NCBI GenBank assembly: GCA_020344055.1
Contig: CP070813.1
Coordinates: 230,358-294,357 of the forward strand
Reading direction: 5' to 3'
Length of the DNA: 64,000 bases
Source: Candidatus Zixiibacteriota bacterium
Lineage (GTDB): Bacteria > Zixibacteria > MSB-5A5 > UBA10806
The notes under the pieces were generated by a model. The model worked only from the letters and a program-made list of their open reading frames with translations, was not told where the DNA came from and did no database searches. Below, piece by piece: positions 1,132-63,734 of this stretch (within the stretch, counting starts at the first letter, position 1; each line of letters opens with the position of its first letter). The position numbers were made by a program, and so were the translations under genes.

Positions 1132-2400
1132 CTATTTCAAAAGGAGCATCTTTTTCGTTATGTTAAAGGACGTTCCTTTAACGGAATAGAGATAGATGCC
1201 CCCCGAATGGTCGTCCCCGTCCCACATAATATTGTGGTGCCCCTCCTCAAGATATGAATCATGCAGCGATCCGATACTGCGACCCAGTATATCGAAAATC
1301 TCAATGGAAACATCGCCCGCTTCGAATAGATAAAAGCTTACGACGGTTTGTGAATTGAACGGGTTCGGGTAATTTCTTACCAGCCCTATTTTCCCCGGCT
1401 TTTCCGGGGCTTCATCATCTGACGAGGAGAGCTCGAAGTCGCCGCCGCCGTATGCGCCCACGTCGCTGGATATCGTCCCCAATCCCCACAGGCTGTCCAG
1501 GACCAAATCGCGGATGTAGGGAGCGCCGACGTCGATGCAGGGAGAGTCATAGGGAAAGCCGTATTCAGTGGACATCAGATGGAAATCGCCCTGATTCCTG
1601 TCACGGAACTCGGGATTGGCGTTTATGTTGCCCTGACCCGGCCACCCGGCGTAAATATCGCTGTAGTTTACCTGAGGAATCGGAGTCCCCTCCTGATAAA
1701 TTTCGGAGCCTTCCGGCGCGCTGTTTCCCCAGAGGATGCAATTAGTAATATTCGGCGCGGAGAAATTTGAAAAAATCGCCCCGCCGTACCACATGGCGTT
1801 GTTACCGAATATGGTGTTATTGATCATATCCGGCGATGAATATTCGCAGAAAATTCCTCCGCCCCTGCCGCCGTCGGTACCGCTGGCGTTATTATTTATT
1901 ATCAGGTTGTTAATAATAGTAGCCTCGGAATTTTCGCAATATATCCCGGCGCCCTGCCCGTAGGGCCAGAAACCGGTATAGGTTGTATTGTCAACGATTT
2001 TATTGTGCGAGATAACCGGGCTCGAATTTTCGCAATAGATCCCACCGCCGTTATCCGAATATCCATTGGTAATTGTAAAACCGGTAATAACCGCCCGGCT
2101 ATCCTCACCGGTCTGAAATATCACCGCATGACCGGTTCCGCCGCCGTCTATCACGGTAGAATCAATATAGTCCTGGATTCCGGTCGTAATATACTTTGAG
2201 GCCAATACCAGATATTGACCGTTGAAATTAATATTCTCGTAATATATACCCGGGGCTACCAGAAGAGTATCGCCCCCCGAGCAATCATTGATGCCGTCCT
2301 GAATAGTCGGGTATTCACCCGGCACATGCCTTATCCGAGCCTCCGCAATGAAACAAAACAGGCCAACCAGGATCATTGCCAGCACAGAATTTTTCAGCAT
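1132..2400 (-). CDS. Secreted right-handed parallel beta-helix repeat protein with T9SS type-A C-terminal sorting domain
   Basis: N-terminal signal peptide (MLKNSVLAMILVGLFCFIAEA). Repeated N-x-T-I-x-G-N motifs typical of PbH1 beta-helix repeats. C-terminus NYPNPFNSQT...KKMLLLK matches T9SS CTD. Start moved to the internal Met preceding the signal peptide. Confidence 0.7.
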   Translation of the reverse strand: MLKNSVLAMILVGLFCFIAEARIRHVPGEYPTIQDGINDCSGGDTLLVAPGIYYENINFNGQYLVLASKYITTGIQDYIDSTVIDGGGTGHAVIFQTGEDSRAVITGFTITNGYSDNGGGIYCENSSPVISHNKIVDNTTYTGFWPYGQGAGIYCENSEATIINNLIINNNASGTDGGRGGGIFCEYSSPDMINNTIFGNNAMWYGGAIFSNFSAPNITNCILWGNSAPEGSEIYQEGTPIPQVNYSDIYAGWPGQGNINANPEFRDRNQGDFHLMSTEYGFPYDSPCIDVGAPYIRDLVLDSLWGLGTISSDVGAYGGGDFELSSSDDEAPEKPGKIGLVRNYPNPFNSQTVVSFYLFEAGDVSIEIFDILGRSIGSLHDSYLEEGHHNIMWDGDDHSGGIYLYSVKGTSFNITKKMLLLK

Positions 2401-2578
2401 TGCGACGACTCCGCCTAAAGTTTCCTTCTTAACAACACAACCAATTATATAACATAAATATACGCAAAAAATATCCTTAAACAAGATAAAAACGAGCTAC
2501 AGATACCGGAAAAATCCTCCCCGGCTTTTCATGACTAATTTATTGGTTATCAATCAGTTAAAACCAAAATGGTAATTT

Positions 2579-25906: not shown

Positions 25907-26917
25907 ATGACACAGTCAATATTAAAACTTGATTCGGTCGATGTATCCGCATTGGAAAGCTATCGCGAGAAATTCGCCCTGGATGTATTAACCGGATTAT
26001 CGGAACCGCGAAAATCCATTCCCTCAATATATCATTACGATGCCGAGGGAAGCAGGTTATTCACTAAAATTACCGAGCTGCCGGAATATTATCCGACCAG
26101 ATGCGAGGTGGAGACACTTAAAAGAAACATAGGTCGATTCGCCGGTTATATGGAATCGGAAACCATAAACTTGATCGAATTCGGCCCCGGCGACGGCAGC
26201 AAGACCAGGATACTGGTGGAGTACTTCCTGAACAAAGGGCTGGCGTTCCAGTACATTCCCATTGATATATCCTTTTCAGCCCTCGACGATCTGCATCGGG
26301 CGTTTAAAAAATCCTATCCCAAACTGGAGCTCAAAGGGCTGGTGGCCGATTATTTCTCCGGAATAAAGTGGCTTAATAACGAGTATAACCGAAAAAACAT
26401 AGTCCTATTCCTCGGTTCGAACATAGGTAATTTCAATCAGGCAAAATCGAAACTGTTTTTGCGTAATTTATGGAATCACCTCAACGACGGCGATATCGTT
26501 ATAATAGGATTTGATCTCAAAAAGGATATCGATCTATTACTGAGAGCCTACAACGATTCCCAGGGTGTAACGGCTGAATTCAATCTCAACCTGTTACGCA
26601 GAATAAATCGGGAATTGGCCGGTGAATTCGACGTATCGAAATTCAGGTTTTTCGCCACCTACGACGTTTTCAGCGGCGCCATGGAGAGTTACCTGGTCAG
26701 TCTCGAAAAACAGGAAGTGATCATTGGCGAAATAGGAAGATCTTTTCATTTCGATCCCTGGGAGCCTATTCATACTGAGTATTCATACAAATACCTGGAA
26801 TCCGATATTCTCAACCTGGCGAAAAATACAGGTTTTATATTAAAAGAAAATCTTTATGACGAGAAAAAGTACTTTGTAAACTCTGTATGGGAAGTGTACA
26901 AGCCGCACGCCAGTTAA
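25907..26917 (+). CDS. egtD: EgtD-like L-histidine N-alpha-methyltransferase
   Basis: YHYDAEGSRLFTKITELPEYYPTRCE closely matches the EgtD hallmark (Y.YD..GS.LFE.I.ELPEYYPTR.E); SAM-binding EFGPGDGSKT; 336 aa. Confidence 0.8.
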   Translation: MTQSILKLDSVDVSALESYREKFALDVLTGLSEPRKSIPSIYHYDAEGSRLFTKITELPEYYPTRCEVETLKRNIGRFAGYMESETINLIEFGPGDGSKTRILVEYFLNKGLAFQYIPIDISFSALDDLHRAFKKSYPKLELKGLVADYFSGIKWLNNEYNRKNIVLFLGSNIGNFNQAKSKLFLRNLWNHLNDGDIVIIGFDLKKDIDLLLRAYNDSQGVTAEFNLNLLRRINRELAGEFDVSKFRFFATYDVFSGAMESYLVSLEKQEVIIGEIGRSFHFDPWEPIHTEYSYKYLESDILNLAKNTGFILKENLYDEKKYFVNSVWEVYKPHAS

Positions 26918-26924
26918 AGTAATA

Positions 26925-29900
26925 ATGAGCATCGCCGAAAAATACGCCGGAAAAGAGCGCAGAGCCCTCTGCGGAATCTGTCCCGCAGGTTGCTGGGTGA
27001 AGGTCAAATACGATAAGGATGGGAAATTATCGGAGGTTCGCGCCGACGATAGCTCCGAGCTGGGAATGATCTGCAAGCTGGGCGAGCATTCCGCCGATAT
27101 CGTATATTCGGAACACCGCCTGAAATATCCCCTGAAAAGAAAAAGCCCTAAGGGCACCTATGAATTCGAACGGATTTCCTGGGATGAGGCCTATGATATA
27201 ATAGTCGAAAAATTGAATGCGCTTAAATCTCAATTCGGCCCCGAATCAACATGTATATACACCGGCAGGGGAAGTTTCGAGCTTGCCTTATGCGATATCT
27301 TTCAGCCGGCCGGTGTAGCCGTTTCCTCGGCCTCCAGCGTACTGTTTCCCTTCGGATCGCCTAACACCATGGGCGTGGGAGCGCTCTGTTACGTGGCCTT
27401 TGCCATGATCGCCCCGCACGTAACAATGGGGGGTATGCTGATCGATATGTACTCCGATATTGAAAACAGCGATCTAATCGTGGCTTGGGGCGCCAACCCC
27501 GCCACCGACTGCCCGCCGCTGGATCTCAAGAGAATCCTGGCAGCCCGCGATCGGGGAGCTGAGGTGGTAGTGATAGACCCCCGCAGAACCAGAACGGCTA
27601 AAATGACCGACGCCGAATGGGTTCCTGTCCGCCCGGGTACTGACGGCGCTCTAGCCCTGGGAATGTGCAACGTGCTTATAGAAGAAGAGCTTTACGACGA
27701 CGATTTCGCCGGGAACTGGACCGTCGGTTTCGATGATTTCGTAAGATACGTTCAGCATTATCGCCCGGAAGTGGTGGAAAAGACTACCGGTGTGCCAGCG
27801 GATACGGTTGTAAAGCTCGCCAGGAGAATCGCCGGTTCCAACGGCGCCTCTCCCGTTATGTACAGCGGCCTCGAATACAGCGACAGCGGGGTGCAGGCTA
27901 TCCGTGCCACCATGGTGCTGTGGGCGTTAGCGGGACAGCTTGACGTCCCCGGCGGGCGTTGCTTCAGTATGAGGCAAAATCAATTTCCTCTTAACAAAAG
28001 CGGGCATATACCGAATCCTGATCTTAAAAAAGCGCTGGGCAGAGATAAATTCCCGGTTTACAGTTCCTATCGCGGCGAATCGCATGCCATAGTCCTTCCC
28101 GATTCGGTGATACATGGAAAACCTTATAAGATCAGATCGCTAATTATGCATGGCGCTTCCATTACTACTTCCTGGCCGGAACCGCACATCTGGAAAGAAA
28201 CTTTAAACGCCCTCGATTTCCTGGTCTGCATCGACCGGCAACTTACCGCCGACGCCACTTACGCCGACATCGTTCTGCCCGCCACCACCATGTACGAGAT
28301 CGAATCGTACATGACCTACGGCCCGATTTTCAGAATAAGAGAAAAGGTGATCGAGCCGGTCGGCGAGGCAAGAAACGATTTCGTCATAATGGCCGAACTT
28401 GCAAAACATCTCGGCTACGGCCACCTATATCCCCAAAATGAAGAAGAATTATTGAATAAGGTATTGGAAAATTCCGGTTTTACTCTGGAACAGGTACGAG
28501 AAGCCGGTGGCGAAGTACAAGCCCCTACCGTTATGAACCAGTATAAAAAGTGGGAGAAGGGACAACTAAGACCGGATGGTAAGCCAGGATTTGATACACC
28601 TACTGGCAAATTCGAAATAGCCTCGACGATACTGGAAGAACATGGTTATGAGCCCTTGCCGGTATACACTGAACCTGCCGAAAGCCCGCAATCGCGGCCC
28701 GATATGACCGGGAAATATCCACTGGTTTTCAACTCCGGTTCCAGGGTAACGACCGACTTCCGCACCCAGCATCACGGGATACCGTCGTTATACAAACAGC
28801 GGCCCGAACCGACCGTTACCATAAATACACAGGATGCTAAAGAAAGAGATATCAAAACCGGCGATCTCGTTACAATCAAGACCGCCCGCGGACAGGTCGA
28901 TTTGAGAGCGTATGTAACGGATGATATTGTAATGGGCGCCATCGACGCCAACATGGGCGGTGGCGGTCCCGTGGGCCCGGAGGCCTGGCAGAAATGTAAC
29001 ATAAACAATCTCACCGATCTTCAGAGATATGACCCCATATCCGGCTTCCCGGTTTACAAGGCATTGTTATGCGACGTGGTAAAGGCCGGGGTTGCATCCA
29101 ATAAAGTGGTTATCGATTCGGGAGAGGATGGCACGGTAAAAGAATCCAAAAGGATGAAAAAAGAAATGCCCTTGCGCCGCGTCTATCTCGATCATAACGC
29201 CACCACCTATCTCGATCCCGAAGTGCTCAAGGTGATGACCGAATTTATGGAAAATGGTTTCGGTAATCCCTCCTCTATTTACCAGGAGGGACGCAAAGCC
29301 AGGGATGCCCTTGAAGCGGCCCGGCGGAGTATGGCCCAGCTTCTCAATTGCACCGCCCGGCGAATCATCTTCACCGGCGGCGGTTCCGAGGCTAACAACC
29401 TCGCCATCAAGGGAGCGGCATTTGCCAATTGGAATGCCAATAGACATATTATAACATCTGCCATCGAGCATCCTGCGGTGCTCAACGCCTGCAAATGGCT
29501 GGAGAAATTCGGCTTCGAGGTAACATATCTTTCGGTAGATAATACCGGTTTGATAAGCCCGGAGGATTTCGAGAAGGCTATCAAACCCAACACCGTCCTC
29601 GCCACCATCATGCTGGCCAATAACGAGACCGGCACCATCCAGCCTATAAAGGAGCTGGCGAAAATCGCCCATGAAAAATCGATCCTGTTTCATACCGACG
29701 CTACCCAGGGTATCGGGAAGATTCCTGTCGATGTAACAGATCTGGATGTCGATATGCTCTCCATGTCGGGGCACAAGCTTTACGGGCCGAAAGGTGTCGG
29801 CGTATTTTATATAAAATCCGGTCTCGAAATCGATCCCCTCATTCACGGCGGCAAGCAGGAACGGGGCCAGCGCGCCGGTACCGAAAACATGGTAAATATA

Positions 29901-30332
29901 GTGGGGATGGGAAAAGCGGCCGAGATAGCGGTGCAGAAGCTTCCGGAGATGGATAAGCTGCGAAAGATGAGGGATAAGCTGGAACAGGGTATAAGAAAAC
30001 TAGTACCCGACGTCAGGCTCAACGGCCACGAAACTGAAAGATTACCAAACACCTTGAATCTCACCCTCCCCGGCATGCGGGGCGAATCGGTTACCCTAGC
30101 TCTCGATCAAAGAGGCATTTCCATATCGTCCGGTTCCGCCTGCAGATCCGGCTCGCCTAAACCGTCTCACGCTCTGCTCGCCATGGGCCTGAGCGAGGAC
30201 GACGCCCACTGCGCTATAAGATTATCACTGGGCCTTAAAAACACCGAGGACGATATCGATTACGCTCTCAGGCAGTTCGGGGCGGTCATCAAAGACGATA
30301 AAAGCTCGGTGCGGTTTATACCGTGCAGGTAG
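26925..30332 (+). CDS. Metallopterin-dependent ergothioneine synthase-like fusion: Mo/W-bisPGD oxidoreductase module (aa 1 to approx 740) + NifS-like cysteine desulfurase module (aa approx 748-1135)
   Basis: Single uninterrupted 1135-codon ORF. N-terminus has the CGICPAGC Fe-S cysteine motif and molybdopterin-oxidoreductase and molybdopterin-dinucleotide-binding-like regions. From nt approx 29166 the sequence is a class-V aminotransferase (YLDHNATTYLDPEV, PLP-lysine SGHKLYGPKG, active-site SSGSACRSG). Starts 7 nt after egtD. Confidence 0.75.
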   Translation: MSIAEKYAGKERRALCGICPAGCWVKVKYDKDGKLSEVRADDSSELGMICKLGEHSADIVYSEHRLKYPLKRKSPKGTYEFERISWDEAYDIIVEKLNALKSQFGPESTCIYTGRGSFELALCDIFQPAGVAVSSASSVLFPFGSPNTMGVGALCYVAFAMIAPHVTMGGMLIDMYSDIENSDLIVAWGANPATDCPPLDLKRILAARDRGAEVVVIDPRRTRTAKMTDAEWVPVRPGTDGALALGMCNVLIEEELYDDDFAGNWTVGFDDFVRYVQHYRPEVVEKTTGVPADTVVKLARRIAGSNGASPVMYSGLEYSDSGVQAIRATMVLWALAGQLDVPGGRCFSMRQNQFPLNKSGHIPNPDLKKALGRDKFPVYSSYRGESHAIVLPDSVIHGKPYKIRSLIMHGASITTSWPEPHIWKETLNALDFLVCIDRQLTADATYADIVLPATTMYEIESYMTYGPIFRIREKVIEPVGEARNDFVIMAELAKHLGYGHLYPQNEEELLNKVLENSGFTLEQVREAGGEVQAPTVMNQYKKWEKGQLRPDGKPGFDTPTGKFEIASTILEEHGYEPLPVYTEPAESPQSRPDMTGKYPLVFNSGSRVTTDFRTQHHGIPSLYKQRPEPTVTINTQDAKERDIKTGDLVTIKTARGQVDLRAYVTDDIVMGAIDANMGGGGPVGPEAWQKCNINNLTDLQRYDPISGFPVYKALLCDVVKAGVASNKVVIDSGEDGTVKESKRMKKEMPLRRVYLDHNATTYLDPEVLKVMTEFMENGFGNPSSIYQEGRKARDALEAARRSMAQLLNCTARRIIFTGGGSEANNLAIKGAAFANWNANRHIITSAIEHPAVLNACKWLEKFGFEVTYLSVDNTGLISPEDFEKAIKPNTVLATIMLANNETGTIQPIKELAKIAHEKSILFHTDATQGIGKIPVDVTDLDVDMLSMSGHKLYGPKGVGVFYIKSGLEIDPLIHGGKQERGQRAGTENMVNIVGMGKAAEIAVQKLPEMDKLRKMRDKLEQGIRKLVPDVRLNGHETERLPNTLNLTLPGMRGESVTLALDQRGISISSGSACRSGSPKPSHALLAMGLSEDDAHCAIRLSLGLKNTEDDIDYALRQFGAVIKDDKSSVRFIPCR

Positions 30333-44624: not shown

Positions 44625-47111
44625 TTATCTCACACCTCCGGCAGCCTGTTCAAGAAGTCTCCTGTACGCCAATCGTTTATCGCGCCTGACGATCATCCTG
44701 AAAACGCCAAACGCTACTATAACCGCCGGCGCCAGCAGAATGGTAAAAATCCTCCAGAGTATCTTTGAAAGCGGAGAGGTCTCCTTCAGGAAACGAACTT
44801 GAATAATCTTGCTCCTGATATGAAGCAGATCCTCGCTCAAGGCGAATCCCTCAATGGCCTTTAACAACAGATCTTCATGAGACGGTTTCTGACCCCGGAA
44901 CCCGGCCTCCGGTATGAATTGATCGGAAAAAATCTCGTTGTTGCCTATAAACATTAATCTGCCCGGAGCCGGAGTCACGGATTCAACGTCAGAGAGAGCT
45001 TCGACTGAATCGGGTAGATCCTGCCATTTCGGCGGAGGCTGATTCTCGTATGGATCCGGGAACTGCCCCTCCAGGATCACCGCCAGAGGCTGACGCCCGA
45101 TTTTCTCCTGGTAGTCGGGATTGGCAACATCGCCCGCCAACGGCAATCCTGAAAATTCGGCCTCCCAGGTATCGGAGCTGGAGGTCATCAATACCGAAAG
45201 CTTGAGTCCGAGCTCGTCGACTTTCGTAGAATCGATCTTTATGGGGGAACCCCAGAGATAAACCATGGGGCCCAGATTGGCGGTAAACGCGTAATCCTGG
45301 TTGATATTTTCCGGGGAGATCCGGATCTGCACCGGCGATTGAACGTCAAGGTTCACCGGAACCGTAAGAAAACCGAACGACTGCTGGGCTTGGACTCCGA
45401 CCACCTGATTCTGCGCGTCCATCATGATTTTGTCACCCAGCGAGATACCGTAGTTCGAAATCAATCCGTTGATTCCGGGATCGGCCTTGGCCGGCATAAT
45501 CATGACGTCTCCGCCCCGACCGGGACTGTAATTAAACCTGTACGCCTGTGACGCGATTATCACGTCCTTGCCGGCGTAAAGCTGTCTGGCGATCTCATAC
45601 TTTTGCCTGTCCGAAAGGCTTTTGGGTTCCACCACCAGTATCGCCTTGACGTCATCCGGCAGAGTCTCTTTCGAGGACAGCTCTATCCGGCTTAAATTGT
45701 AGCCGAGCTGCCTGTAAGTATTCGCGAGGTTTTGATACCTGTCGTTCTTTTCGGGTATCTGCTGTCCCATCGTTTGCATAAACTGGCGCATTCTGGGATC
45801 GTTATATCTGGGATCCATCGGCTCATAGGGAGCCACAAGGGCGATAACCGGGGGAGCTTCCTGGGTCATCTTGAATATTATCGAACAGATATCGTATTCG
45901 AGACTGGGCAAACTCGAGGGCATAACCTGGGGAATGACTTCGTCCGGCTTATCCAGATAAGATATCGATATCGATGAAAAGACTTTTTTAATGCCGACGG
46001 CGTCCCGTTCAGTGGTTCGCAGAGTAAAAGGGGCAATGCCCTTTTCCGTCAAGCTCTGGGCAAGTTCCTCGTTTCCGGTCGGATCGATGACCTCGTATTT
46101 TATTTTGCCGGAGATCTTTTTGAATTCCTCGAGCTTGTCGGTGATATTCCTCTCGATATCCTTCATGCCGGGCGGCATTTTCTCTTCCGGCGTAACATAA
46201 TACCTGATGGTCACGGTGGTCTTGAGGTCCTCGATTATATTTTTCGCGGAATCGCTTATGGTATAGATCTTGCCTTCGGTAGCATCCCACCGTCCCAGCG
46301 GCAGCTGATAGACTATTATATTGAACATAGCCGCCACGGCGAGCATAACCACGGCCGCGCCGGTAAACGTAAGATCGGCCTGCCGTCTCATCCTCTGCTC
46401 CACCGTCAGGGCGTTCAGAACCAGGAATACCGCCGTGAAGGACAAAAAGTACACGATATCGTTGATGCTTATCACGCCCTTATACATGGTCTCGAAATGC
46501 CCCAGCGACCCGACGGACCTCTGAAGAAAGGTGCCCAGTCCGCCGATCCACGAATCCAGCTGCGCCGCGATGGGAAGCCAGCCCAGAAGGTGCAGCAACA
46601 TCGCTCCTATCACAGCCATCACCCAAGCCGTTATCTGGTCTTTAAAAAGCCCCGAAAAAAACAGCCCAAGTGAGGTATACAAACCTCCCAGAAACAGCAA
46701 TCCGAGATATCCGCCGAATATGGGGCCGCCGTCGGGATCTCCCAGGATTATAATCGCTATCATAATCGGTAACGTACCCAGCAGGTACAATACGTAGAAT
46801 CCCAGGCCCGCGAAAAACTTGCCTAAAACCAGATGCATCGATTTTACCGGAAGCGATTGCAATAGGGCAATCGAACCCGATTTCTGCTCCTCCGCCCAGA
46901 GCCTCATGGTGATAGCGGGAAGGAAAAACAGCATCAACCACGAATTTATGGAGAAAAAGTCCCTCATCTCGGCAACGCCGGCGGCAAAGAAGAAAAAGAA
47001 ACTGTACAATCCGGAGCAAACCGCCAGTATCGCGACTATGAATACATAAGCGATGGGGGAATTGAAATAGGATGAAAATTCTCTTCTAAAAATAGTCATT
47101 ACGTTTTTCAT
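44625..47111 (-). CDS. Fusion of ABC-2-type permease (GldF-like) and GldG-like gliding-associated ABC auxiliary component
   Basis: 828 aa: N-terminal approx 240 aa with 6 TM helices (ABC-2 permease), then a large periplasmic region and a C-terminal TM helix, as in GldG. Confidence 0.6.
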   Translation of the reverse strand: MKNVMTIFRREFSSYFNSPIAYVFIVAILAVCSGLYSFFFFFAAGVAEMRDFFSINSWLMLFFLPAITMRLWAEEQKSGSIALLQSLPVKSMHLVLGKFFAGLGFYVLYLLGTLPIMIAIIILGDPDGGPIFGGYLGLLFLGGLYTSLGLFFSGLFKDQITAWVMAVIGAMLLHLLGWLPIAAQLDSWIGGLGTFLQRSVGSLGHFETMYKGVISINDIVYFLSFTAVFLVLNALTVEQRMRRQADLTFTGAAVVMLAVAAMFNIIVYQLPLGRWDATEGKIYTISDSAKNIIEDLKTTVTIRYYVTPEEKMPPGMKDIERNITDKLEEFKKISGKIKYEVIDPTGNEELAQSLTEKGIAPFTLRTTERDAVGIKKVFSSISISYLDKPDEVIPQVMPSSLPSLEYDICSIIFKMTQEAPPVIALVAPYEPMDPRYNDPRMRQFMQTMGQQIPEKNDRYQNLANTYRQLGYNLSRIELSSKETLPDDVKAILVVEPKSLSDRQKYEIARQLYAGKDVIIASQAYRFNYSPGRGGDVMIMPAKADPGINGLISNYGISLGDKIMMDAQNQVVGVQAQQSFGFLTVPVNLDVQSPVQIRISPENINQDYAFTANLGPMVYLWGSPIKIDSTKVDELGLKLSVLMTSSSDTWEAEFSGLPLAGDVANPDYQEKIGRQPLAVILEGQFPDPYENQPPPKWQDLPDSVEALSDVESVTPAPGRLMFIGNNEIFSDQFIPEAGFRGQKPSHEDLLLKAIEGFALSEDLLHIRSKIIQVRFLKETSPLSKILWRIFTILLAPAVIVAFGVFRMIVRRDKRLAYRRLLEQAAGGVR

Positions 47112-55936: not shown

Positions 55937-56941
55937 TTAAGCGGGCTCGGGATCGAGGTATGTACCCGCGATGGATTCTTTCAACGCCGTTAAAGCCACC
56001 TCGACCTGATCATCGGACGGTTCCCTGGTGGTGATCCTCTGTATCCAGAGACCGGGGGCTATTAAAAACCTGGTTACCGGATGCGACCGCGTTTTCCCCG
56101 ATAGCTTCAATAGCTCAAACGACAATCCCGCCACCATCGGGAGGAATAAAAGGTGAGTTGAAAATCGTTCAAACAATCCCGGAGGATGACCGATAACTAC
56201 CGCGAAAACCGTATCGGATACCGAATAGGTCAGAATCGCGAGTAAAGCGACGATCAGAATAAAGCTGGTGCCGCATCTGGGGTGATGGGTTGTAAACCCC
56301 CGCGTGGATTCAACTTTTAACGGCAGATCGGACTCAAACGCGAAAATCGATTTGTGTTCCGCACCATGATACTGAAAAATCCTCCTGAAGCTTTCAAATC
56401 GGGAGAGCGACCAGATATAGAAAAGAAAGATAAGCATCCGAACCGCGCCCGCCACAAGATTGAATCCGACCGCGTCCCTGGGTATGGCCAGCAATTGAGT
56501 TATTAATATGGGTAAAAAGAAAAATATCGCCAATCCCATGCTTATGGAAAAAATAACCGTCAGCGCTACAGCCAGGTCCAGTTTTCCCGATTGCCTGTCG
56601 GCAATAACAGGTTCCTTATTCTCCGAGTCCCTGGCGGCTATCTCCGCGGAATAATTCAAGGTCTTGATTCCCAGAACCAGCATCTCCACAAACGAAATCA
56701 CTCCGCGGATAATAGGTTTATTCAGTATCTTCTTCTTTTTAGTAATGGACACAAAAGGCTCGGTTTTGGTATGAATGCTCCCGTCGGAAAGCCGCAAAGA
56801 CGTCGATACCTTCTCCGGCGACCTGATCATCACACCCTCGATAACGGCTTGCCCGCCGACGTTTTTATCCACCGAACGCAAAGCCGCCAATGGAATCGAA
56901 AGGCTGGCTACGAGAGACTTTTTTAACAGGGGTCCGCCCAT
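55937..56941 (-). CDS. DUF1385-family membrane protein (conserved rpmE-prfA neighbour)
   Basis: [16 protein letters not shown] matches the DUF1385 hallmark; start moved to internal Met (MGGPLLKK) to avoid overlap with rpmE. Confidence 0.6.
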
Positions 56942-56969
56942 AAATAATCCGCCGGGGAGATGGAATACG

Positions 56970-57197
56970 TTACTTCTTTTCCTTATTGTTTTGTGTCGAC
57001 GTATCGCCATATTTGCGCCGGAATCTCTCGACTCTTCCAGCGGTATCGACAAGTTTCTGTTTACCGGTAAAAAACGGGTGGCAGCTGGAGCAAATTTCCA
57101 CCGCGATATCCTTAACCGTAGACCTGGTCTTGAAACTGTTCCCGCAAGCGCATTTTATGGTGGCCTCCATGTACTTCGGATGAATTTTCGATTTCAA
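56970..57197 (-). CDS. rpmE: 50S ribosomal protein L31
   Basis: [27 protein letters not shown]...[13 protein letters not shown]: Zn-ribbon type L31, 75 aa. Confidence 0.9.
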
Positions 57198-57300: not shown

Positions 57301-58623
57301 TTACCGCATTAGTGTCGTTTTCAATGTTTTTAACCGATCCGATTTGTTTGTATTGCCTTCTGCCCCCATTATCTTCACGAAATAAATCCCGCTTGCGCAT
57401 CCACTATTACCATTGTCGGTTCCATCCCAATAAACTTCGCCATAACCGTCTAAGGTTTCAATATATAACGCCTTTATCAACCGCCCCGAAATATCAAAAA
57501 TGCCGATATCCCTTTCTCTTGGTCCAGAATCATAGCTATGGAGCTTAATCACCGTACCGGCATTGAAGGGGTTAGGATAACTCTTTATCAAATAAGCGGT
57601 TTCCGGTAACATCTCCGATCTCTCTTCTTCGATACCGATCGCCGTATCATCGATAATCGTAATCGACAACGGACCGTCGCCGAGGCCGTATGATCCAATC
57701 ACGTTGCCCGAAAAATCTATCTTACTGACCGTATCATCGCCAAAATTGCAGGAATACACATATCCCAGGGAGTCCGCGGCTATGGAGGACGCTCCCAGGC
57801 CAACCATTATGGGATTTGAGGGGCCACGAATTATATCGCCGCTGAATATATCGTAGGAATAGACATAGCCATTCGCGGACCACCCTCCTGCCGACAGGTA
57901 ACCGATCCCGGTCGGGGAGATCGCCAGCCGGGAGGGTTGCCCGCCTATGAGTACGGAATCGATGGCAACTCCCGACCCGGGATCGAAAATATAAACCGAA
58001 CCCTCCACGTCGTCATAATTCCCGGTGCAGACTATATGAAGCATGCCGTCGGGCGCGCGGCTTATCCATTGCGGATTTTTGCCCACGTTATGGTCCGACA
58101 CGAAGGAGAAACCGCTTAATTCAATTCGGGCGACTTTACCCTGGCCGTAGCTGAAATTATTCGGATCGAAATATGTCTGGGTTACATAAAGATAATTATC
58201 CCGGCATAACAATCCCTCCGGATATCCTCCGATCTCGAGATCGCCGTCTATGGTATTTGTCACCAGGTTCAATCTGTACACTTTTCCCGATACCCAGCCG
58301 GTGACATAGGCGTAATTTCCGTAAAAGGCTATATTGTAAGGATTCGATCCTACAGGGAGAAGGTAAGTAAATTCAATTTGATGACTCGAGGAATTTATCT
58401 TCATGACGTCGGCTGAGATGGAATTGACGACATAAAGATAATTATCATAAAACGCCACCTGGTTGGGCGTCTCCCCCAGAATGGCGATATGATTGGCAAC
58501 AAGCCCGCTTTCCAGATCGATCAGCGACAACGTCTCCGCCAGGCCGTTCACCACATACGCTTCACGCTGCGCGTTCGGGGATGAACATAGTAACAAAATT
58601 AAAAAAAACGTTAACTTTCTCAT
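57301..58623 (-). CDS. YVTN/YncE-type beta-propeller protein with T9SS-like C-terminal domain; candidate surface cobalamin-binding BtuG analogue
   Basis: Signal peptide; repeated NP..IA......YV blades; C-terminal YPNPFNAGTVIKL...GIYFVKI CTD; 4-nt overlap with the upstream BtuB-like gene, which sits behind a cobalamin riboswitch. Confidence 0.5.
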   Translation of the reverse strand: MRKLTFFLILLLCSSPNAQREAYVVNGLAETLSLIDLESGLVANHIAILGETPNQVAFYDNYLYVVNSISADVMKINSSSHQIEFTYLLPVGSNPYNIAFYGNYAYVTGWVSGKVYRLNLVTNTIDGDLEIGGYPEGLLCRDNYLYVTQTYFDPNNFSYGQGKVARIELSGFSFVSDHNVGKNPQWISRAPDGMLHIVCTGNYDDVEGSVYIFDPGSGVAIDSVLIGGQPSRLAISPTGIGYLSAGGWSANGYVYSYDIFSGDIIRGPSNPIMVGLGASSIAADSLGYVYSCNFGDDTVSKIDFSGNVIGSYGLGDGPLSITIIDDTAIGIEEERSEMLPETAYLIKSYPNPFNAGTVIKLHSYDSGPRERDIGIFDISGRLIKALYIETLDGYGEVYWDGTDNGNSGCASGIYFVKIMGAEGNTNKSDRLKTLKTTLMR

Positions 58624-60836
58624 AGTAACCCTCCAGAATTCTCCAGTTTCAGGTTGAATCTATATTCCCGGGGCCTTTCCGGCTGACGATCCAGAATCTC
58701 ATACTGTACGTCGCCCATATTCAAAATGTCGATCCCGGCCGAGATACGGACCTTTCCAAAAGCCTTAGTATAACCCATACGTAAATCCAGCAGGTCTACC
58801 GGCGGCAGAGATTTCGTATTTTCCTCCGTCTGGTAACGTCTACCCAGATGACGCCCTGTTAGTTTTATGTCAATTCCGTATTTTCTAAATTGAATTCCCG
58901 CAGTCTGGGCCCCGATCGGCCGAAACGTCAGGAATTTGCTATAATGGTTAATTTCAGTCTCTTTGTTTAAAGGCTTTGTATATGACGCCGACCAGAAAAC
59001 CGTTACCGGTCCGGAAAAAGGGGCGCTCTCAAATGATAACTCCCATCCGCTGATCTCCGCTTTCGATAGATTAACCGGCTTAAATTTATTTCCGGCCCAG
59101 CGCCGCCAGATAATCAGATCATCATATTCCCGGAAGTGCCGGGCAATTCTGAATTTCGCCGGCACCGCGCTCTCGATATCGACATCGAAACCGATCTCGT
59201 ATCCCTCCGATACCTCCGATTTCAGGGCGGGGTTGGGTTCGGCGAAAACATCCTCCTTCCAGAAAAGGTCGGTCATATCCGGGAGACGCCTGGACCGCGA
59301 AAATGAAATATCGAATCCGGGATTGGCGAAAAGATCAAAACCGGTTCTCAATGTTGCGGAGGGAGCGTCGAAATCTCCCCCATCTCCCCCTTCCCTCCTG
59401 TACCCGACAGAAATTGCCGAAAAGTTCTTGATTTTGCGAAATCGCGGCAACGGGTAAGTAATACCGCTTTGAATTGAGTTCGTGGTCCGTGAATGAAATC
59501 CGAAACTCGCCTCCGGCCTGATATGGTCCTCGCCGTCAAGCGATTCGTACCGCAACTCCCCGGAAAGATCAAAATCGAAATCCCCCTTATACCGGTATGC
59601 CGCCTTAAGATCCCTTCCGGACTCTTTGAACGTGGAGTTATAGGCAATAAAATTATAGACGGATCTGGGGGAATCGTACTGTATCTCGCGATTCGTCATT
59701 CCGCCCGTAAATATTATGCCGGAATTAGGATCGAAATCCCTCGAAAATTTTAAAACCAGTTCCCTTTCGAAAATATCGGAGCGGGCATCGGGAGTAACCT
59801 GGAATATCGGCCCGGGGGAGCCGGCGTTTCTTTTGAAAAGCCTGGTAGTAAACTCCAGCGACGTATGATCGTATTCGTGTTTGATAACCCCGAAAAATTT
59901 CCTGTCATGGTAATAGTTGTTCTCACGGTTTTGAATCGAATCCCGGGGATCGGTAAACGTAAAATCGCCCCGGTCGAATATATCCTCATAATCGATACTG
60001 AACTCCGTTTTAAGAAAAATGGGCCCCGACAGTCGAGCCGTATATCCCTCACGGTCGAAGCCACCCCGTTCGGCGCCGGTTTCGATCTTCAGGTCATCAT
60101 CCGGATCGGCCGTGATGAAATTCACGCTTCCCGCCAGCCCTTTGCTGTCGTAACCGCCGCCCTTGACTATCTCGATTTTCGATACCGATCCCAAGGGAAT
60201 GGATGAGATATCCCCTCTTGACGATAAGACGGAGTTTATTCTTCTGCCGTTTAGTTTTATCTCGGTGCTATTCAGATCGGAGCCGCGCATACGCAGGAAT
60301 TTCTGGGCGCCGTATTCCACAAACTCTATCTCGGGAAGCCGCGATTGCAACTCGTCGATTGAAAACACCCCGCCATTGCCAATTTCAACAATCGTCACAT
60401 TGCCCTGACGGGTTATCAGTACCGGCCCGGTCCTGGACGCGGAAACGACCTGCCCTTTCACCTCTACGGGAAATGGCGTTAGCTCTATGACTAGAGACGT
60501 CGTGGAATATGATTCCACGGAGATCTCTATTTTTTCGGACGGTTTATATCCGATTCTTCCGGCGCTCAGGGAATATTCTCCGGACGGTATGTCGTTGAAA
60601 CGAAACGATCCATCGAAATCGGAGATGGAGGTTTTACCGTAATCCTCTATTGTAACCGTAACCCCCGAAATCGGGGCGCCCGAAACGCTGTCAATGACTT
60701 TCCCGGAGATCTTGACCTCGGATTGGGCATAGAGAATACCGGAAAAAAATATGAATGCCGCGATTACTGAAAATAAATACCGGCAAAGGGCTTTTGCTGA
60801 TAATTGCCGCCTCGCCGACGAACTTTTCGATGTCAT
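58620..60836 (-). CDS. btuB: TonB-dependent receptor, BtuB-like (cobalamin riboswitch-controlled)
   Basis: Signal peptide, CarbopepD_reg-like N-domain, plug and 22-strand barrel length (738 aa), C-terminal aromatic terminus region; cobalamin riboswitch in its leader. Confidence 0.65.
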   Translation of the reverse strand: MTSKSSSARRQLSAKALCRYLFSVIAAFIFFSGILYAQSEVKISGKVIDSVSGAPISGVTVTIEDYGKTSISDFDGSFRFNDIPSGEYSLSAGRIGYKPSEKIEISVESYSTTSLVIELTPFPVEVKGQVVSASRTGPVLITRQGNVTIVEIGNGGVFSIDELQSRLPEIEFVEYGAQKFLRMRGSDLNSTEIKLNGRRINSVLSSRGDISSIPLGSVSKIEIVKGGGYDSKGLAGSVNFITADPDDDLKIETGAERGGFDREGYTARLSGPIFLKTEFSIDYEDIFDRGDFTFTDPRDSIQNRENNYYHDRKFFGVIKHEYDHTSLEFTTRLFKRNAGSPGPIFQVTPDARSDIFERELVLKFSRDFDPNSGIIFTGGMTNREIQYDSPRSVYNFIAYNSTFKESGRDLKAAYRYKGDFDFDLSGELRYESLDGEDHIRPEASFGFHSRTTNSIQSGITYPLPRFRKIKNFSAISVGYRREGGDGGDFDAPSATLRTGFDLFANPGFDISFSRSRRLPDMTDLFWKEDVFAEPNPALKSEVSEGYEIGFDVDIESAVPAKFRIARHFREYDDLIIWRRWAGNKFKPVNLSKAEISGWELSFESAPFSGPVTVFWSASYTKPLNKETEINHYSKFLTFRPIGAQTAGIQFRKYGIDIKLTGRHLGRRYQTEENTKSLPPVDLLDLRMGYTKAFGKVRISAGIDILNMGDVQYEILDRQPERPREYRFNLKLENSGGLL

Positions 60837-60869
60837 TCCGAACCTCGCCCTCGAAGGTTGAAGGAACTA

Positions 60870-61020
60870 TTTACGATGGTATCCTGACTTACGGACCCTT
60901 TGCGGGCGGCCGCGCCTTCCCCTCTTGCGAGTGTGGCTCTTCGCGGCGCTTACCCGATCACAGTAGCGGGGCTGTGACGGTATCTCACCGTCTTCCCATC
61001 GGGGCTTTCACCCTGTTTAT
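60870..61020 (-). promoter_or_regulatory. Cobalamin (B12) riboswitch in the leader of the BtuB-like gene
   Basis: mRNA-sense sequence GGUGAAAGCC..GGGAAGACGGUGAGAUACCGUCACAGCCCCGCUACUGUGA...GAGCCACACUCGCAAGAGGGGAAGGCG...GUAAGUCAGGAUACCAUCG contains the conserved GGUG..A..CC / CCCGC.ACUGU / GGGAAGG / AGUCAGGA.ACC (B12-box) blocks in the canonical order, ending about 45 nt before the ATG. Confidence 0.7.
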
Positions 61021-61059
61021 CTACAATAAATTTTAATTCACTTGTCCCCGGTTGTCAAG

Positions 61060-61096
61060 CTTGAATGTAAAAAAGTAGGGGTCAGGCATGCCTGAC
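61060..61096 (-). terminator. Hairpin downstream of T9SS cargo gene 61124..62122
   Basis: AGGGGTCAGGCATGCCTGACCCCT perfect palindrome. Confidence 0.5.
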
Positions 61097-61123
61097 CCCT
61101 ACAAGTAACCATCTTACATCATA

Positions 61124-62122
61124 TTACTTCAGCAGCGTCATCCGCCTGGTATAAGAACCCTCCGCCGTCTCCAAACGGTAGAAATAGATGCCGCTGGGAT
61201 GACCTGATCCATCCCAGGTTATTTCATGATGGCCCGTTGACATCGGCGCCGAAATCGGGTGGTCAATTTCACGCCCCAGCAGATCATAGATTATAAGCTT
61301 GATAGGCGAATCATTTAGAAGTTCGAATTCGATTACGGTTGAGGCGTTGAACGGATTGGGATAATTCGATAGATAAATATCGGGCAATTCGGGGATTTCA
61401 ACTTCGTTCATGCCCGTAGTCACAACGTGAATTATCCCATCTACCAGAACCGGCGGAATAAAATAGGTAGGTATCGAATAATTGCCGAATCCGGAGGGAT
61501 AATACCAGCCTCCAATTAGATCTAAATCAATATCTGTTCCGGGTAAAACGTCCGGGGATACTGCCATAATAATTTGCCCGACCGGATTATGACCGGGCGA
61601 TACCGGGTCTAAACTAGCAAGTTGAAAACTGATTACTCCGTCTTCGTATTCATAATAGTTTTCGGTGGAAAAGAATTGGCCATATTCGATATTCAAGAAC
61701 TCGACCTGCAGATCATTGAATGCAAAATGGAGGTTTATGCCCGTTAACATCTCGGGGGTAATAGCATAAAACGGTATGCCTACAGTATCTCCGGGAGAAG
61801 CGTATACTTCTTGAATGATAAGAGTATCGAGTTCATTGGGTAGAGGAGGGTTGTTGCCGATAGTCAAATAAAAGAACAAAATATTCCACCAATCGGCTAC
61901 GGTGTGAAATAAACTGTCGCCGTTCATATCGCCCCCTAACCATGAACAACTCGACGTATCAATCCAGCTTGACTGATAAGCCCCTCCCAAATACCATGAC
62001 AAGTATATAATATCCAGACCGTTAAAGGTCCCGTCACAGGTCATATCCCCCGGAACCTGGGCATATGAATATAACGGCAATAAAGCCATAATAACCAGCG
62101 AGATCATAATTGATTTAGCCAT
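61124..62122 (-). CDS. Secreted protein with N-terminal dockerin-like motifs and T9SS type-A C-terminal domain
   Basis: Signal peptide; GDMTCDGTFNGLDIIYL and GGDMNGDS Ca-binding dockerin-like motifs; C-terminus NYPNPFNAST...GIYFYRLETAEGSYTRRMTLLK. Confidence 0.6.
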   Translation of the reverse strand: MAKSIMISLVIMALLPLYSYAQVPGDMTCDGTFNGLDIIYLSWYLGGAYQSSWIDTSSCSWLGGDMNGDSLFHTVADWWNILFFYLTIGNNPPLPNELDTLIIQEVYASPGDTVGIPFYAITPEMLTGINLHFAFNDLQVEFLNIEYGQFFSTENYYEYEDGVISFQLASLDPVSPGHNPVGQIIMAVSPDVLPGTDIDLDLIGGWYYPSGFGNYSIPTYFIPPVLVDGIIHVVTTGMNEVEIPELPDIYLSNYPNPFNASTVIEFELLNDSPIKLIIYDLLGREIDHPISAPMSTGHHEITWDGSGHPSGIYFYRLETAEGSYTRRMTLLK

Positions 62123-62273: not shown

Positions 62274-63734
62274 TCACTTCAACAGCGTCATCCGCCTGGT
62301 GTATGAGCCCTCCGCCGTCTCCAGGCGGTAGAAATAGATGCCGCTGGGATAATTGTCAGCGTTCCACGTAATAAAATGATCCCCGGCTTCTTTGAATTCG
62401 CTGAGCGGGATATCTACAACGCGCCCGAGAAGATCGTAGATAACTATTTTAACATCGCCGGCTTGCGGAATACTGAAGGATATATTAGTGGAGGCGTTGA
62501 AAGGATTGGGGTAATTATCCAAGAAGAGAAAATTGTCGGGAGCGGAACTTGAGACCTCATCAATGCCGGTGGCGCCGACGTTTTCCCACCAGGTGATTCT
62601 ATTGCCGAATTGAGCCGCCCCGAGCACATCGGTATCGCCGTCGAGGTCGAAGTCTTTGGCATCGATGCCGGTGGCGCCGTCAAAATTGTCTGAAATCGTA
62701 TGTTCCAACCAATCCAAGGGATCGCCGGTATTCTCCCACCAGGCTATTTTATCGCTATTTATGGCCGCCCCCAGTATGTCTACATCCCCATCATTGTCAA
62801 AATCCGCCGTGCGAACGGAGTGCGGTCTGCTGAACCCGTATGCGATCGTATACTGATCGAATCCCTGAGATCCGTTATTCTCGAACAATAGAACCTGGTT
62901 GATTACGCAGACCGTTGCCAGTATATCGATATCACCATCCGAATCGACATCATCGGGATAGGCACAGCTGGGGCGTGCCGTGGTGGACAGAATAATGTGT
63001 TTCGTAAAATTCTGGTTGCCGTCGTTCTCGAACCACGCGATCTCCCCGGCCTGGCTGGCCGTTCCGATCAAATCCACGTCCAGATCGGAATCGAGATCGG
63101 CCGCCGCCACGCTGTTGGCGTTATCCCAATTGTCTATAACAATATGGTCAGTGAAAACCAGGTTACCCTCATTTTCAATCCAGCCCATCCTGTTGATGCC
63201 GCCTTCGCAGCAGCATACGAGCACGTCCGGATCGAGATCGGAATCGACGTCCGCCACGGTGAGGAAGCTGGCGTACGGCCAACTGCCGATGATATGCCGC
63301 GTGAAGCTCTGCGAACCCTGGTTCTCCCATAGCTCGACCCCGTTGGTCTGGGAGGCGCACAGTATGTCGATATCATCATCGTTATCCATATCGACCGCGT
63401 AAACCGCCATAGCGTAATACGAACTATCGGAGATATTATGCTGTTGAAAATTCAAATTATCAAGGTTCTCCCACCAGGTTACGCAGTGCCCGAGGCGGCC
63501 CGAGGCGACTACATCGGTATCGCTGTCGTCGTCCATATCTATGCCGAAAACGCTCCAGGGATTATTGTAATATTGCGCAACGGGGTGTTCGACAAATCCG
63601 ATCTGGGTAAAACCTGTAGCTGCAAAAGCAAGCGACAGGACCAATCCTGCCATAAAATAATATAAATACGCGATCATAAATATCCTCCCCGTTCTGTTTT
63701 TTAGGCGATAATTTCGGCATCCAGTGCTAACCAC
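62274..63734 (-). CDS. FG-GAP/VCBS-repeat beta-propeller protein with T9SS type-A C-terminal domain
   Basis: Repeated D.D.DGD.D Ca-binding loops followed by W.EN (FG-GAP-like blades); C-terminus identical in its last 17 aa to that of 61124..62122. Confidence 0.65.
   Translation of the reverse strand: MVSTGCRNYRLKNRTGRIFMIAYLYYFMAGLVLSLAFAATGFTQIGFVEHPVAQYYNNPWSVFGIDMDDDSDTDVVASGRLGHCVTWWENLDNLNFQQHNISDSSYYAMAVYAVDMDNDDDIDILCASQTNGVELWENQGSQSFTRHIIGSWPYASFLTVADVDSDLDPDVLVCCCEGGINRMGWIENEGNLVFTDHIVIDNWDNANSVAAADLDSDLDVDLIGTASQAGEIAWFENDGNQNFTKHIILSTTARPSCAYPDDVDSDGDIDILATVCVINQVLLFENNGSQGFDQYTIAYGFSRPHSVRTADFDNDGDVDILGAAINSDKIAWWENTGDPLDWLEHTISDNFDGATGIDAKDFDLDGDTDVLGAAQFGNRITWWENVGATGIDEVSSSAPDNFLFLDNYPNPFNASTNISFSIPQAGDVKIVIYDLLGRVVDIPLSEFKEAGDHFITWNADNYPSGIYFYRLETAEGSYTRRMTLLK

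Follow-up and report, generated by a model that had tools for sequence, protein, structure and literature searches.

A riboswitch-linked BtuB-like transporter and BtuG-like β-propeller with a type IX secretion sorting domain in a Zixibacteria genome: a predicted corrinoid-uptake module

Could the propeller partner of a BtuB-type transporter, a lipoprotein in Bacteroides, be brought to the cell surface through type IX secretion (T9SS)? This question is raised by a 64-kb stretch of DNA (the window: 64,000 nucleotides of contig CP070813.1 of a Candidatus Zixiibacteriota bacterium). An initial annotation, made from the sequence alone, had placed at positions 57301-61020 a cobalamin riboswitch, a BtuB-like TonB receptor and a β-propeller protein with a T9SS C-terminal sorting domain (CTD), and had proposed that this propeller is a BtuG-like B12-capture protein delivered by T9SS instead of a lipid anchor. 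The results presented below leave us in very little doubt that the two genes form a B12-regulon pair, composed of a BtuB-like transporter and a BtuG-like propeller. The elements of this unit are as follows (aa, amino acids; nt, nucleotides).

61075..61102, minus strand: strong intrinsic terminator closing the T9SS-CTD gene that lies upstream (12-bp stem with 8 GC pairs, then TTTTTT)
61030..61058, minus strand: candidate sigma-70-like promoter (TTGACA-17 nt-TAAAAT) directly 5′ of the aptamer, proposed from its consensus match (11/12)
60861..61036, minus strand: cobalamin riboswitch aptamer, RF00174
60837..60866, minus strand: probable expression platform, a predicted short hairpin in which an anti-Shine-Dalgarno element faces the Shine-Dalgarno sequence
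58620..60836, minus strand: BtuB-like TonB-dependent transporter, 738 aa, with CarboxypepD_reg, Plug and TonB_dep_Rec_b-barrel matches in Pfam
57301..58623, minus strand: YVTN propeller protein, 440 aa (TIGR02276, 41.2 bits against a cut-off of 27.85)

The aptamer read from the sequence in the leader of the transporter gene was recovered by an Rfam scan of the whole window at gathering threshold, in which RF00174 was the sole match. It covers the model from end to end (1-189) and scores 73.1 bits (E 4e-16), where the curated gathering score is 31.5. The limits assigned to the unit in the initial annotation held to within a few bases for its elements, except upstream: the 5′ end of the aptamer lies at 61036 and the promoter-like site reaches 61058. 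The terminator at 61075..61102 is the 5′ boundary of the B12 unit.

The ATG of the transporter gene lies 24 nt past the aptamer, with no terminator between them; five relatives have a distance of 19-24 nt here. The spacer contains an element, ACCUUCG(A)GGGCGAGG, which is nearly invariant in loci L001, L002, L005, L007 and L010, even where the identity of the propeller drops to 38%. In the RNAalifold prediction the anti-Shine-Dalgarno CCUU(C) faces the Shine-Dalgarno GAGG, and UUCC is paired with the GGAA directly 5′ of the AUG. The alignment revealed no covariation in this platform, because the element is invariant, and the leader folds no better than its shuffles (z-score −0.89), which gives no thermodynamic support for any one fold; for these two reasons we can only infer that B12 probably represses translation through sequestration of the Shine-Dalgarno sequence.

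The open reading frames (ORFs) of the transporter and propeller share the 4-nt ATGA overlap noted in the initial annotation (cTATGAg; GGG TTA CTA TGA versus ATG AGA AAG), and GGAGGG is located 8 nt upstream of the start codon of the propeller gene, an arrangement of overlapping genes that suggests co-production of the two proteins. The genes 3′ of the propeller encode housekeeping functions (ribosomal protein L31, about 57197..56970; DUF1385; prfA; TldD/PmbA), and the B12 unit is therefore a two-gene operon. The L31 gene, rpmE (56970..57197, minus strand, TTG start), which lies between the propeller and DUF1385 genes, was absent from the list of ORFs, and the DUF1385 ORF (55937..57052, TTG start), over-extended at its 5′ end, overlaps it.

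The transporter comprises the following parts.

aa 1-37, minus strand: signal peptide with predicted cleavage at …LYA↓QSE
aa 43-127, 60456..60710, minus strand: N-terminal CarboxypepD_reg domain
aa 151-228, 60153..60386, minus strand: plug
aa 279-703, 58728..60002, minus strand: barrel

Its kinship to BtuB is visible only with a family profile: phmmer with the single sequence gave no match in the PDB at 1e-5, and the NCBIfam BtuB equivalogs scored 57 bits (TIGR01779, cut-off 599.7) and 53 bits (NF007926, cut-off 836). When the PDB was searched with a profile built on the orthologues of 22 related loci (A4), the ten best matches were all BtuB. The best of them was full-length BtuB1 of B. thetaiotaomicron (1.4e-69), and BtuB2 (1.2e-63), E. 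coli BtuB (1.7e-62) and BtuB3 (1e-60) scored above Cir (3.8e-56) and FepA (about 1e-33). The protein thus has a plug and a barrel, BtuB as its closest characterised relative and a cobalamin riboswitch in its leader; judged by profile comparison, it is a divergent relative of BtuB, as the initial annotation had proposed. The BtuB proteins of Bacteroides align to A4 only from profile position 119, and the CarboxypepD_reg domain is therefore an addition in this transporter family. The window encodes a second TonB-dependent transporter (815 aa, 10541..12988, minus strand), which has a SusC-like N-terminal CarboxypepD_reg domain and no riboswitch.

The propeller protein, which is 100% identical to UCC80012.1, can be divided into four parts.

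aa 1-18, 58570..58623, minus strand: signal peptide of signal peptidase I (SPase-I) type, MRKLTFFLILLLCSSPNA↓QRE, recognised in a 78-member comparison
aa 19-326, 57646..58569, minus strand: seven-bladed β-propeller, BtuG homologue by profile, AlphaFold2, Foldseek and hhalign
aa 327-344, 57592..57645, minus strand: low-confidence linker and probable tether (predicted local distance difference test, pLDDT, <50 for residues 329-342)
aa 345-440, 57301..57591 including the stop codon, minus strand: T9SS type-A CTD (motifs SYPNPFN, IFDISGR, SGIYF; KTTLMR end)

Several comparisons revealed a full-length relationship between this propeller and BtuG. A PDB search with the single sequence already retrieved BtuG1 (8PTF/8PTD, 6e-7), together with chain 8BLW_B of the BtuB1G1 complex; the assignment of 8PTF, 8PTD and 8BLW to BtuG1 follows bioRxiv 10.1101/2024.02.16.580637 and PMC10404256. 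The profile of the propeller family (A2, 78 members) matched BtuG1 8PTD at 7.7e-23, collinearly over positions 48-354 versus 87-406, and BtuG2 and BtuG3 at about 1e-13. The E. coli protein YncE (3VGZ) was reached only at 7.6e-5. When A2 was aligned by hhalign with 18 authentic BtuG1 relatives carrying Pfam PF16819/DUF5074 (A3), the probability was 99.8% (E 5e-28, 303 columns, residues 20-330).

The AlphaFold2 model contains a seven-bladed propeller of high confidence (pLDDT about 95-98 for residues 20-325) and a separate β-sandwich CTD. The propeller superimposes on the structures of BtuG: when Foldseek was run against the PDB, BtuG1, BtuG2 or BtuG3 occupied every rank from 2 to 17 (target-normalised template-modelling score, TM, 0.73-0.80; root-mean-square deviation, rmsd, 3.1-4.5 Å), followed by Lp49, hydrazine synthase β, NirF and YncE, with E values of 1e-17 to 1e-19 for BtuG versus 4e-11 for YncE. 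The comparison with BtuG and YncE proposed in the initial annotation therefore came out strongly on the side of BtuG, and the propeller family is, on profile and model evidence, homologous to BtuG. The label of E. coli YncE-like DNA-binding propeller, which several clusters of the family bear in JGI/NCBI, was rejected on account of these profile and Foldseek scores, far below those of BtuG, and of genomic context.

In order to compare the ligand face with that of BtuG, we used chains 8BLW_B and 8BMX_D, whose numbering matches the native numbering in publications. Residues R141, R244, E249 and Y290 of BtuG1, and C32, E55, G56, F58, Q93, N107, S131, W149, W194, S195 and Q219 of BtuG2, were in register. 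The contact positions and their counterparts in the 78 family members are listed below.

BtuG2 Q93 / BtuG1 N95: N54, conserved in 78/78
BtuG N107 / N109: N67 and S68, conserved in 72/78 and 78/78
BtuG S131 / Q139: N94, conserved in 77/78
BtuG Q219 / N227: N183, conserved in 77/78
BtuG W149 / Y155: position 110, W or F in 59/78
BtuG1 Y290: W248, aromatic (W/F/Y) in 72/78

The positions aligned with the hydrogen-bond donors to the corrin amides are thus occupied by near-invariant Asn residues (N54, N94 and N183), position 96 is Tyr or Trp in 73 of the members, and the SRGNY motif of the BtuG1 family corresponds to CTGNY in the window propeller, the shared form being (S/C)(R/T)GNY. The aligned residues are compatible with a ligand face whose polar and aromatic character has been conserved.

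The same pairing of genes was found in other phyla. Loci were gathered by a peptide pattern derived from the propeller alone, with one genome per GTDB species; this yielded 41 loci in metagenome-assembled genomes (MAGs) labelled Zixibacteria, WOR-3, KSB1, Cloacimonadota, Zhuqueibacterota, Eisenbacteria, Gemmatimonadota, Spirochaetes and others, some of which submitter labels may be unreliable. Seven loci had too little upstream DNA to be assessed. Among the remaining 34, a same-strand RF00174 aptamer lay upstream of the propeller gene at gathering threshold in 31, the others being L011, L014 and L037. The WOR-3 loci L011 and L037 carry matches to AdoCbl-II (RF01689, same clan) of 34.7 and 32.1 bits, short of its gathering score of 36.5, in the equivalent place immediately 5′ of the transporter gene (L011:4512-4587 and L037:4516-4594), and these are likely to be true, divergent cobalamin riboswitches. 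L014 is the sole assessable locus with no B12 riboswitch signal.

In nearly all loci the gene immediately 5′ of that of the propeller encodes a homologue of the transporter; the propeller, like BtuG, is thus found next to a btuB-type gene in a riboswitch-controlled B12 locus. The flanking genes vary between clades, and the conserved core therefore consists of riboswitch, transporter and propeller. In some operons a BtuF-type periplasmic binding protein (PF01497, 2.2e-45) is encoded between transporter and propeller, and in others a DUF6580 membrane protein follows the riboswitch; in L016 and L017 the latter, a candidate inner-membrane corrinoid transporter, is encoded between riboswitch and transporter.

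Several loci depart from the simple arrangement. Two tandem RF00174 aptamers, 140 nt apart, precede the transporter gene in L013 (415-877), and two are also present in L017 (3610-4668). In L012 (4747-8314; Cloacimonadota MAG) and L014 (4582-8284; unclassified "bacterium" MAG) three successive genes follow that of the transporter, the first for a CTD protein, the second for a propeller with a lipobox or without any anchor, and the third for a propeller with a CTD, while L018 and L020 have propeller genes on both sides of it. In L008 (4670-7001; Zixibacteria MAG) the transporter is split into overlapping ORFs of 459 and 375 aa, which may reflect a frameshift or assembly error, or a pseudogene.

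How could the propeller be attached to the cell surface? By inspection and family comparison, its N-terminus carries the Sec/SPase-I signal found in type-A cargo of T9SS, with the cleavage consensus …(V/A)FA↓QR(E/Q)AY in the 78 members. The window propeller has no lipobox, its Cys13 is neither conserved nor part of such a motif, and no Cys is conserved across the N-termini of the family; the proposal that a lipid anchor is lacking was thus borne out, and the protein does not share the lipoprotein character of BtuG. In the AlphaFold2 model the first β-strand starts at residue 21, 2-3 residues past the predicted cleavage site, which leaves no N-terminal tether. The C-terminal strand (318-324) closes the ring by completing the blade formed by N-terminal strands 21-48. 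Both termini exit the propeller at the same point in the model, and a C-terminal tether may therefore be geometrically able to replace the N-terminal tether of BtuG.

The predicted cleavage sites of three window proteins are followed by Gln at +1 (transporter, …LYA↓QSE, 60726; propeller, …PNA↓QRE, 58570; the 61124..62122 protein, …SYA↓QVP, ~62060). This "Q-rule" has been reported as typical of Bacteroidetes, not of the whole Fibrobacteres-Chlorobi-Bacteroidetes (FCB) group (PMC5837995).

The C-terminal region passes TIGR04183 (T9SS type-A sorting; 27.5 bits against a cut-off of 23), as expected from the CTD proposed in the initial annotation, and the A2 profile matches the CTD of PorU (6ZA2) at 2.9e-7. 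With the propeller, the 64-kb window encodes five type-A CTD proteins (the others at 61124..62122, 62274..63734, 1132..2484 and 18662..20752), which share the NPFN, IxDxxGR and GxYF motifs and a basic end. Two of them, encoded by adjacent genes (61124..62122 and 62274..63734, both minus strand), have different bodies, one of them with FG-GAP repeats, and identical last 24 residues (PSGIYFYRLETAEGSYTRRMTLLK), which suggests recent CTD duplication or gene conversion. Elsewhere in the window (44625..47111, minus strand) lies a gene for an 828-aa fusion of a GldF-like ABC permease and a GldG-like protein, matching gliding-motility-associated ABC families below their cut-offs.

In this propeller family, T9SS is just one among a number of anchors that can stand in for each other, a result that goes beyond the initial annotation. 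When 1.84 billion representatives were searched exhaustively by phmmer, with the propeller alone as query, 143 clusters were retrieved at E≤1e-30. Anchors were classed with local hidden Markov models in the best 150 clusters, 138 of which were full length, with the following outcome.

SPase-I signal and T9SS CTD: 59/138 (plus 3 with a lipobox-like regular-expression match)
lipobox and no C-terminal module: 42/138 (about 5 more with atypical lipoboxes)
dockerin: 16/138
IPTL/PEP-CTERM-like tail: 1-2/138

The approximate shares are therefore ~45% for the T9SS CTD, ~30-35% for the lipobox and ~12% for dockerin. The fetched loci and database homologues reveal one propeller type, in the same riboswitch and transporter context, with alternative attachment devices. 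Both of the two lipobox members examined are encoded downstream of RF00174 and a transporter, and one of them also has TonB, ExbBD and a BtuF-type protein encoded nearby. In L012 and L014, of Cloacimonadota type, two or three paralogues with different anchors occur in a single operon. The exchange of anchors within a constant context argues that surface display is the selected property.

Propellers of ~400 aa ending in two dockerin-type repeats (PF00404), with no CTD, are encoded in L015, L016, L017, L021, L025, L027, L030, L031, L033 and L034, and the member from Zixibacteria RBG-1 scores above the Pfam cut-off. For the dockerin-type propellers no cohesin partner was identified; cluster "c7", found beside several of them and considered as a cohesin-like anchor, was rejected, as it contains only generic histidine kinases. 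The tails of P0067 (…IPTLSEWGMILLALLILAIG…RRRK) and P0288 (…IPLLGRESMIILMLMLALAGSFLLKRRG) resemble IPTL/PEP-CTERM sequences, which suggests a fourth, exosortase-type anchoring route.

A further architecture is represented by members of 634-640 aa (L022:7946-8650, L023, L024, L026, L028, L032, P0095 and P0096), in which a strongly conserved domain of ~220 aa (…SDPWADAVVSFTPG…NVLGPPD…GVDFTVFEN…GDFDLDAVVAV) is located between propeller and CTD. This domain had no match in Pfam, or in the PDB by profile search, and was modelled by AlphaFold2 with a pLDDT of 25-50. The arrangement parallels the BtuG1-BtuH fusion; similarity to BtuH/BtuJ was not detectable, as BLAST against the BtuG1-BtuH protein gave propeller similarity only. 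A 634-aa member of KSB1 type passes both DUF5074 (27.9 versus 27.2 bits) and PF18962 (33.3 bits).

Taken as a whole, we consider it reasonably probable that the locus is a B12-repressed two-gene corrinoid-uptake module of this Zixibacteria genome, which would operate as follows: (i) when cobalamin is scarce, the riboswitch would leave the Shine-Dalgarno sequence free, (ii) the BtuB-type outer-membrane transporter would then be made, and the BtuG-like propeller with it by translational coupling, (iii) the propeller would cross the inner membrane via Sec and signal peptidase I, (iv) T9SS would export it and it would be tethered at the surface, and (v) one face of the propeller would capture corrinoids and hand these over to the transporter, which is how BtuG serves BtuB in Bacteroides. 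Corrinoid binding, T9SS export, tethering, formation of a complex and translational control are all predicted steps of this scheme.

A number of observations weigh against this account. No intrinsic terminator was detected 3′ of the propeller gene, and no btuFCD genes are present in the locus. Other such observations concern the identity of the propeller. Its top match in the PDB, both by summed sequence score and by fold, is the archaeal YVTN S-layer protein 1L0Q; the BtuG1-family model PF16819 (DUF5074) does not match the window propeller even at E≤10, and matches only 7 of the 78 family members. Several contact residues of BtuG have been lost: the Arg of the S-P-R motif (R133 in BtuG2, R141 in BtuG1) is replaced by Tyr or Trp in the family and R244 of BtuG1 by Thr, the SEGLF loop (E55, G56 and the Phe that stacks on dimethylbenzimidazole, DMB) is replaced by NGLAE or a 5-residue deletion, so that the DMB-stacking Phe is apparently absent. 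Among the conserved Asn residues, N26 and N67 are the Asn of the generic YVTN motif. The alignment at these positions hints that the lower ligand may be handled differently from BtuG.

The 1L0Q match, the missing DUF5074 match and the lost contacts would be in line with a generic YVTN surface protein that does not bind corrinoids and, co-transcribed with the transporter, acts as its structural or protective partner; alternatively, the transporter would import another B12-related compound. We regard this as improbable. The match to 1L0Q consists of three overlapping blade matches to one query region (rmsd 16 Å) and is a generic repeat similarity, since authentic BtuG1 likewise matches 1L0Q (2e-20). 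The homology to BtuG1, in contrast, is collinear and full length, the structures of BtuG fill the Foldseek ranks immediately below the first, invariant polar residues stand at positions aligned with corrin contacts, and the linkage to cobalamin riboswitches and BtuB-like transporters is near-universal across phyla.

The remaining observations concern T9SS. The CTD scores 23.4 bits with PF18962, under its cut-off of 27 bits, and PF13860 (FlgD_ig) matches the same region; no T9SS machinery was found among the ten large window ORFs scanned with NCBIfam. Views on T9SS outside Bacteroidetes diverge, the system is poorly documented outside Bacteroidota, and our literature searches on Zixibacteria and T9SS retrieved no report of a working T9SS there. 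One could thus envisage that the CTD is a mere Ig-like module, and that the propeller is a periplasmic corrinoid binder which takes the place of the BtuF missing from the locus. This explanation appears very improbable to us, given that the region does pass TIGR04183 and shares its motifs and basic end with four other proteins of the window; moreover, the long family members pass PF18962 while their operons encode a separate BtuF-type protein, and the dockerin and lipobox variants indicate a location at the cell surface.

Export by T9SS need not imply retention. Many type-A CTD cargos of species other than Porphyromonas are secreted in soluble form, and removal of the CTD after export could release the propeller as a soluble "cobalaminophore", which would scavenge at a distance and dock transiently in the manner of a hemophore. 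The tether-free N-terminus of the mature propeller would allow this, and the window holds no evidence of anionic lipopolysaccharide (A-LPS) or PorU. Nevertheless, the lipobox, dockerin and IPTL/PEP-CTERM-like tails of the sister proteins are all cell-retaining devices, the ATGA coupling suggests a stoichiometric partner, and complexes of BtuG with BtuB are stable (PMC10404256); we therefore regard release as unlikely, and retain the surface-tethered partner as the preferred reading.

B12 is a keystone shared nutrient, and the extremely tight binding by BtuG is thought to give Bacteroides a competitive edge. In a broader reading, towards which we are evenly disposed, BtuG would be one branch of a wider family of corrinoid-capture propellers that work with BtuB-type transporters under B12 riboswitches and carry a swappable anchor module, T9SS serving to deliver the accessory "lid". 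The family was found in uncultured phyla of sediment and groundwater, and the wider grouping would span candidate phyla of the Fibrobacteres-Chlorobi-Bacteroidetes group (Zixibacteria, WOR-3, KSB1, Cloacimonadota, Zhuqueibacterota and Eisenbacteria), together with Spirochaete-labelled MAGs. The common exit point of the two termini would make exchange of anchors geometrically easy.

If this reading is correct, (i) the BtuB-BtuG system would exceed the published descriptions in age, distribution and modularity, and the origin of the "lidded" BtuBG transporter would move back to, or beyond, the ancestor of the FCB group, to which Zixibacteria belong, (ii) lids of TonB-dependent transporters would join the cargo of T9SS as a functional class of their own, outer-membrane complexes that scavenge B12 could be built by a novel route, and T9SS and dockerins would gain a role in micronutrient uptake, and (iii) the family would represent a natural anchor-swapping experiment, showing surface display beside the transporter to be the selected property. 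In the source names examined, UCC80012.1 and clusters related to it appear under no other labels than "T9SS type A sorting domain-containing protein", "YVTN family beta-propeller protein" or "YncE"; with more apt names, B12 auxotrophy and scavenging could be predicted more reliably from MAGs.

Apart from the genes discussed above, the window contains a region (25907..30332, plus strand) in which a gene for a histidine N-alpha-methyltransferase of EgtD type (299 bits; cut-off 290.9) is followed by an ORF of 1135 aa. The latter is a fusion of a molybdopterin oxidoreductase (formate-dehydrogenase/PhsA-like, aa 10-715) and a NifS-type cysteine desulfurase (aa 753-1126), and this unusual protein is possibly linked to ergothioneine-type sulfur transfer.

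In the literature searched, BtuG is described only as a lipoprotein of Bacteroidota. The lipobox Cys was found in nearly all of 114 BtuG homologues by Wexler et al. (2018), whose BlastP searches found none outside Bacteroidetes (PMC6143338). A September 2026 review treats BtuG in the same way; it considers a distribution wider than Bacteroidota for BtuH and BtuJ alone and does not mention T9SS. None of the papers found ties BtuG to T9SS, and the sole one that names both concerns the β-barrel assembly machinery (BAM) complex.

The window propeller shares with known T9SS type-A cargos (gingipains and the CTDs of PorU/PorZ) an N-terminal Sec signal and a sorting domain of ~95 aa with the usual motifs. 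It differs from them in being a putative nutrient-capture partner of a TonB-dependent transporter under a riboswitch, in a host outside Bacteroidota. YncE of E. coli and 1L0Q belong to the same YVTN-type seven-bladed superfamily; the former matches much less well and lacks any B12 context, while the likeness of the latter lies in generic repeats that are also found in authentic BtuG1. BtuG2 (BT1954) and BtuG3 (BT2095) (3DSM, 8BAI, 8BMX, 8PUJ and 8OKV) have the same fold (TM 0.73-0.80, rmsd 3.1-4.0 Å) and the same genomic logic, but their sequence kinship is weaker than that of BtuG1, and W194, W272 and Y316, which make the upper-ligand cavity narrower, are without clear equivalents in the window propeller.

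The closest known system is BtuG1 (BT1490)/BtuB1 (BT1489) of locus 1 of B. thetaiotaomicron (8PTD, 8PTF and 8BLW). Here the homology of the propellers is full length, the propeller gene is directly 3′ of that of a BtuB-type transporter with a cobalamin riboswitch over the operon, the best PDB match of the window transporter family is BtuG1's own partner, and polar positions for the corrin amides correspond (N95 to N54, Q139 to N94 and N227 to N183). In contrast to BtuG1, the window propeller has neither lipobox, lipid anchor nor N-terminal tether, and a T9SS CTD stands where BtuG1 has its C-terminal BtuH domain; the two sequences are about 16-23% identical, conservation does not extend to R141, R244 or the DMB-stacking F60, the N-terminal CarboxypepD_reg domain of its transporter is absent from BtuB1-3 in the alignment, and the host belongs to Zixibacteria instead of Bacteroidota. 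As it is neither a lipoprotein nor a member of DUF5074, we class the propeller as a BtuG-like homologue rather than as BtuG, encoded beside a relative of the transporter with which BtuG1 itself is paired.

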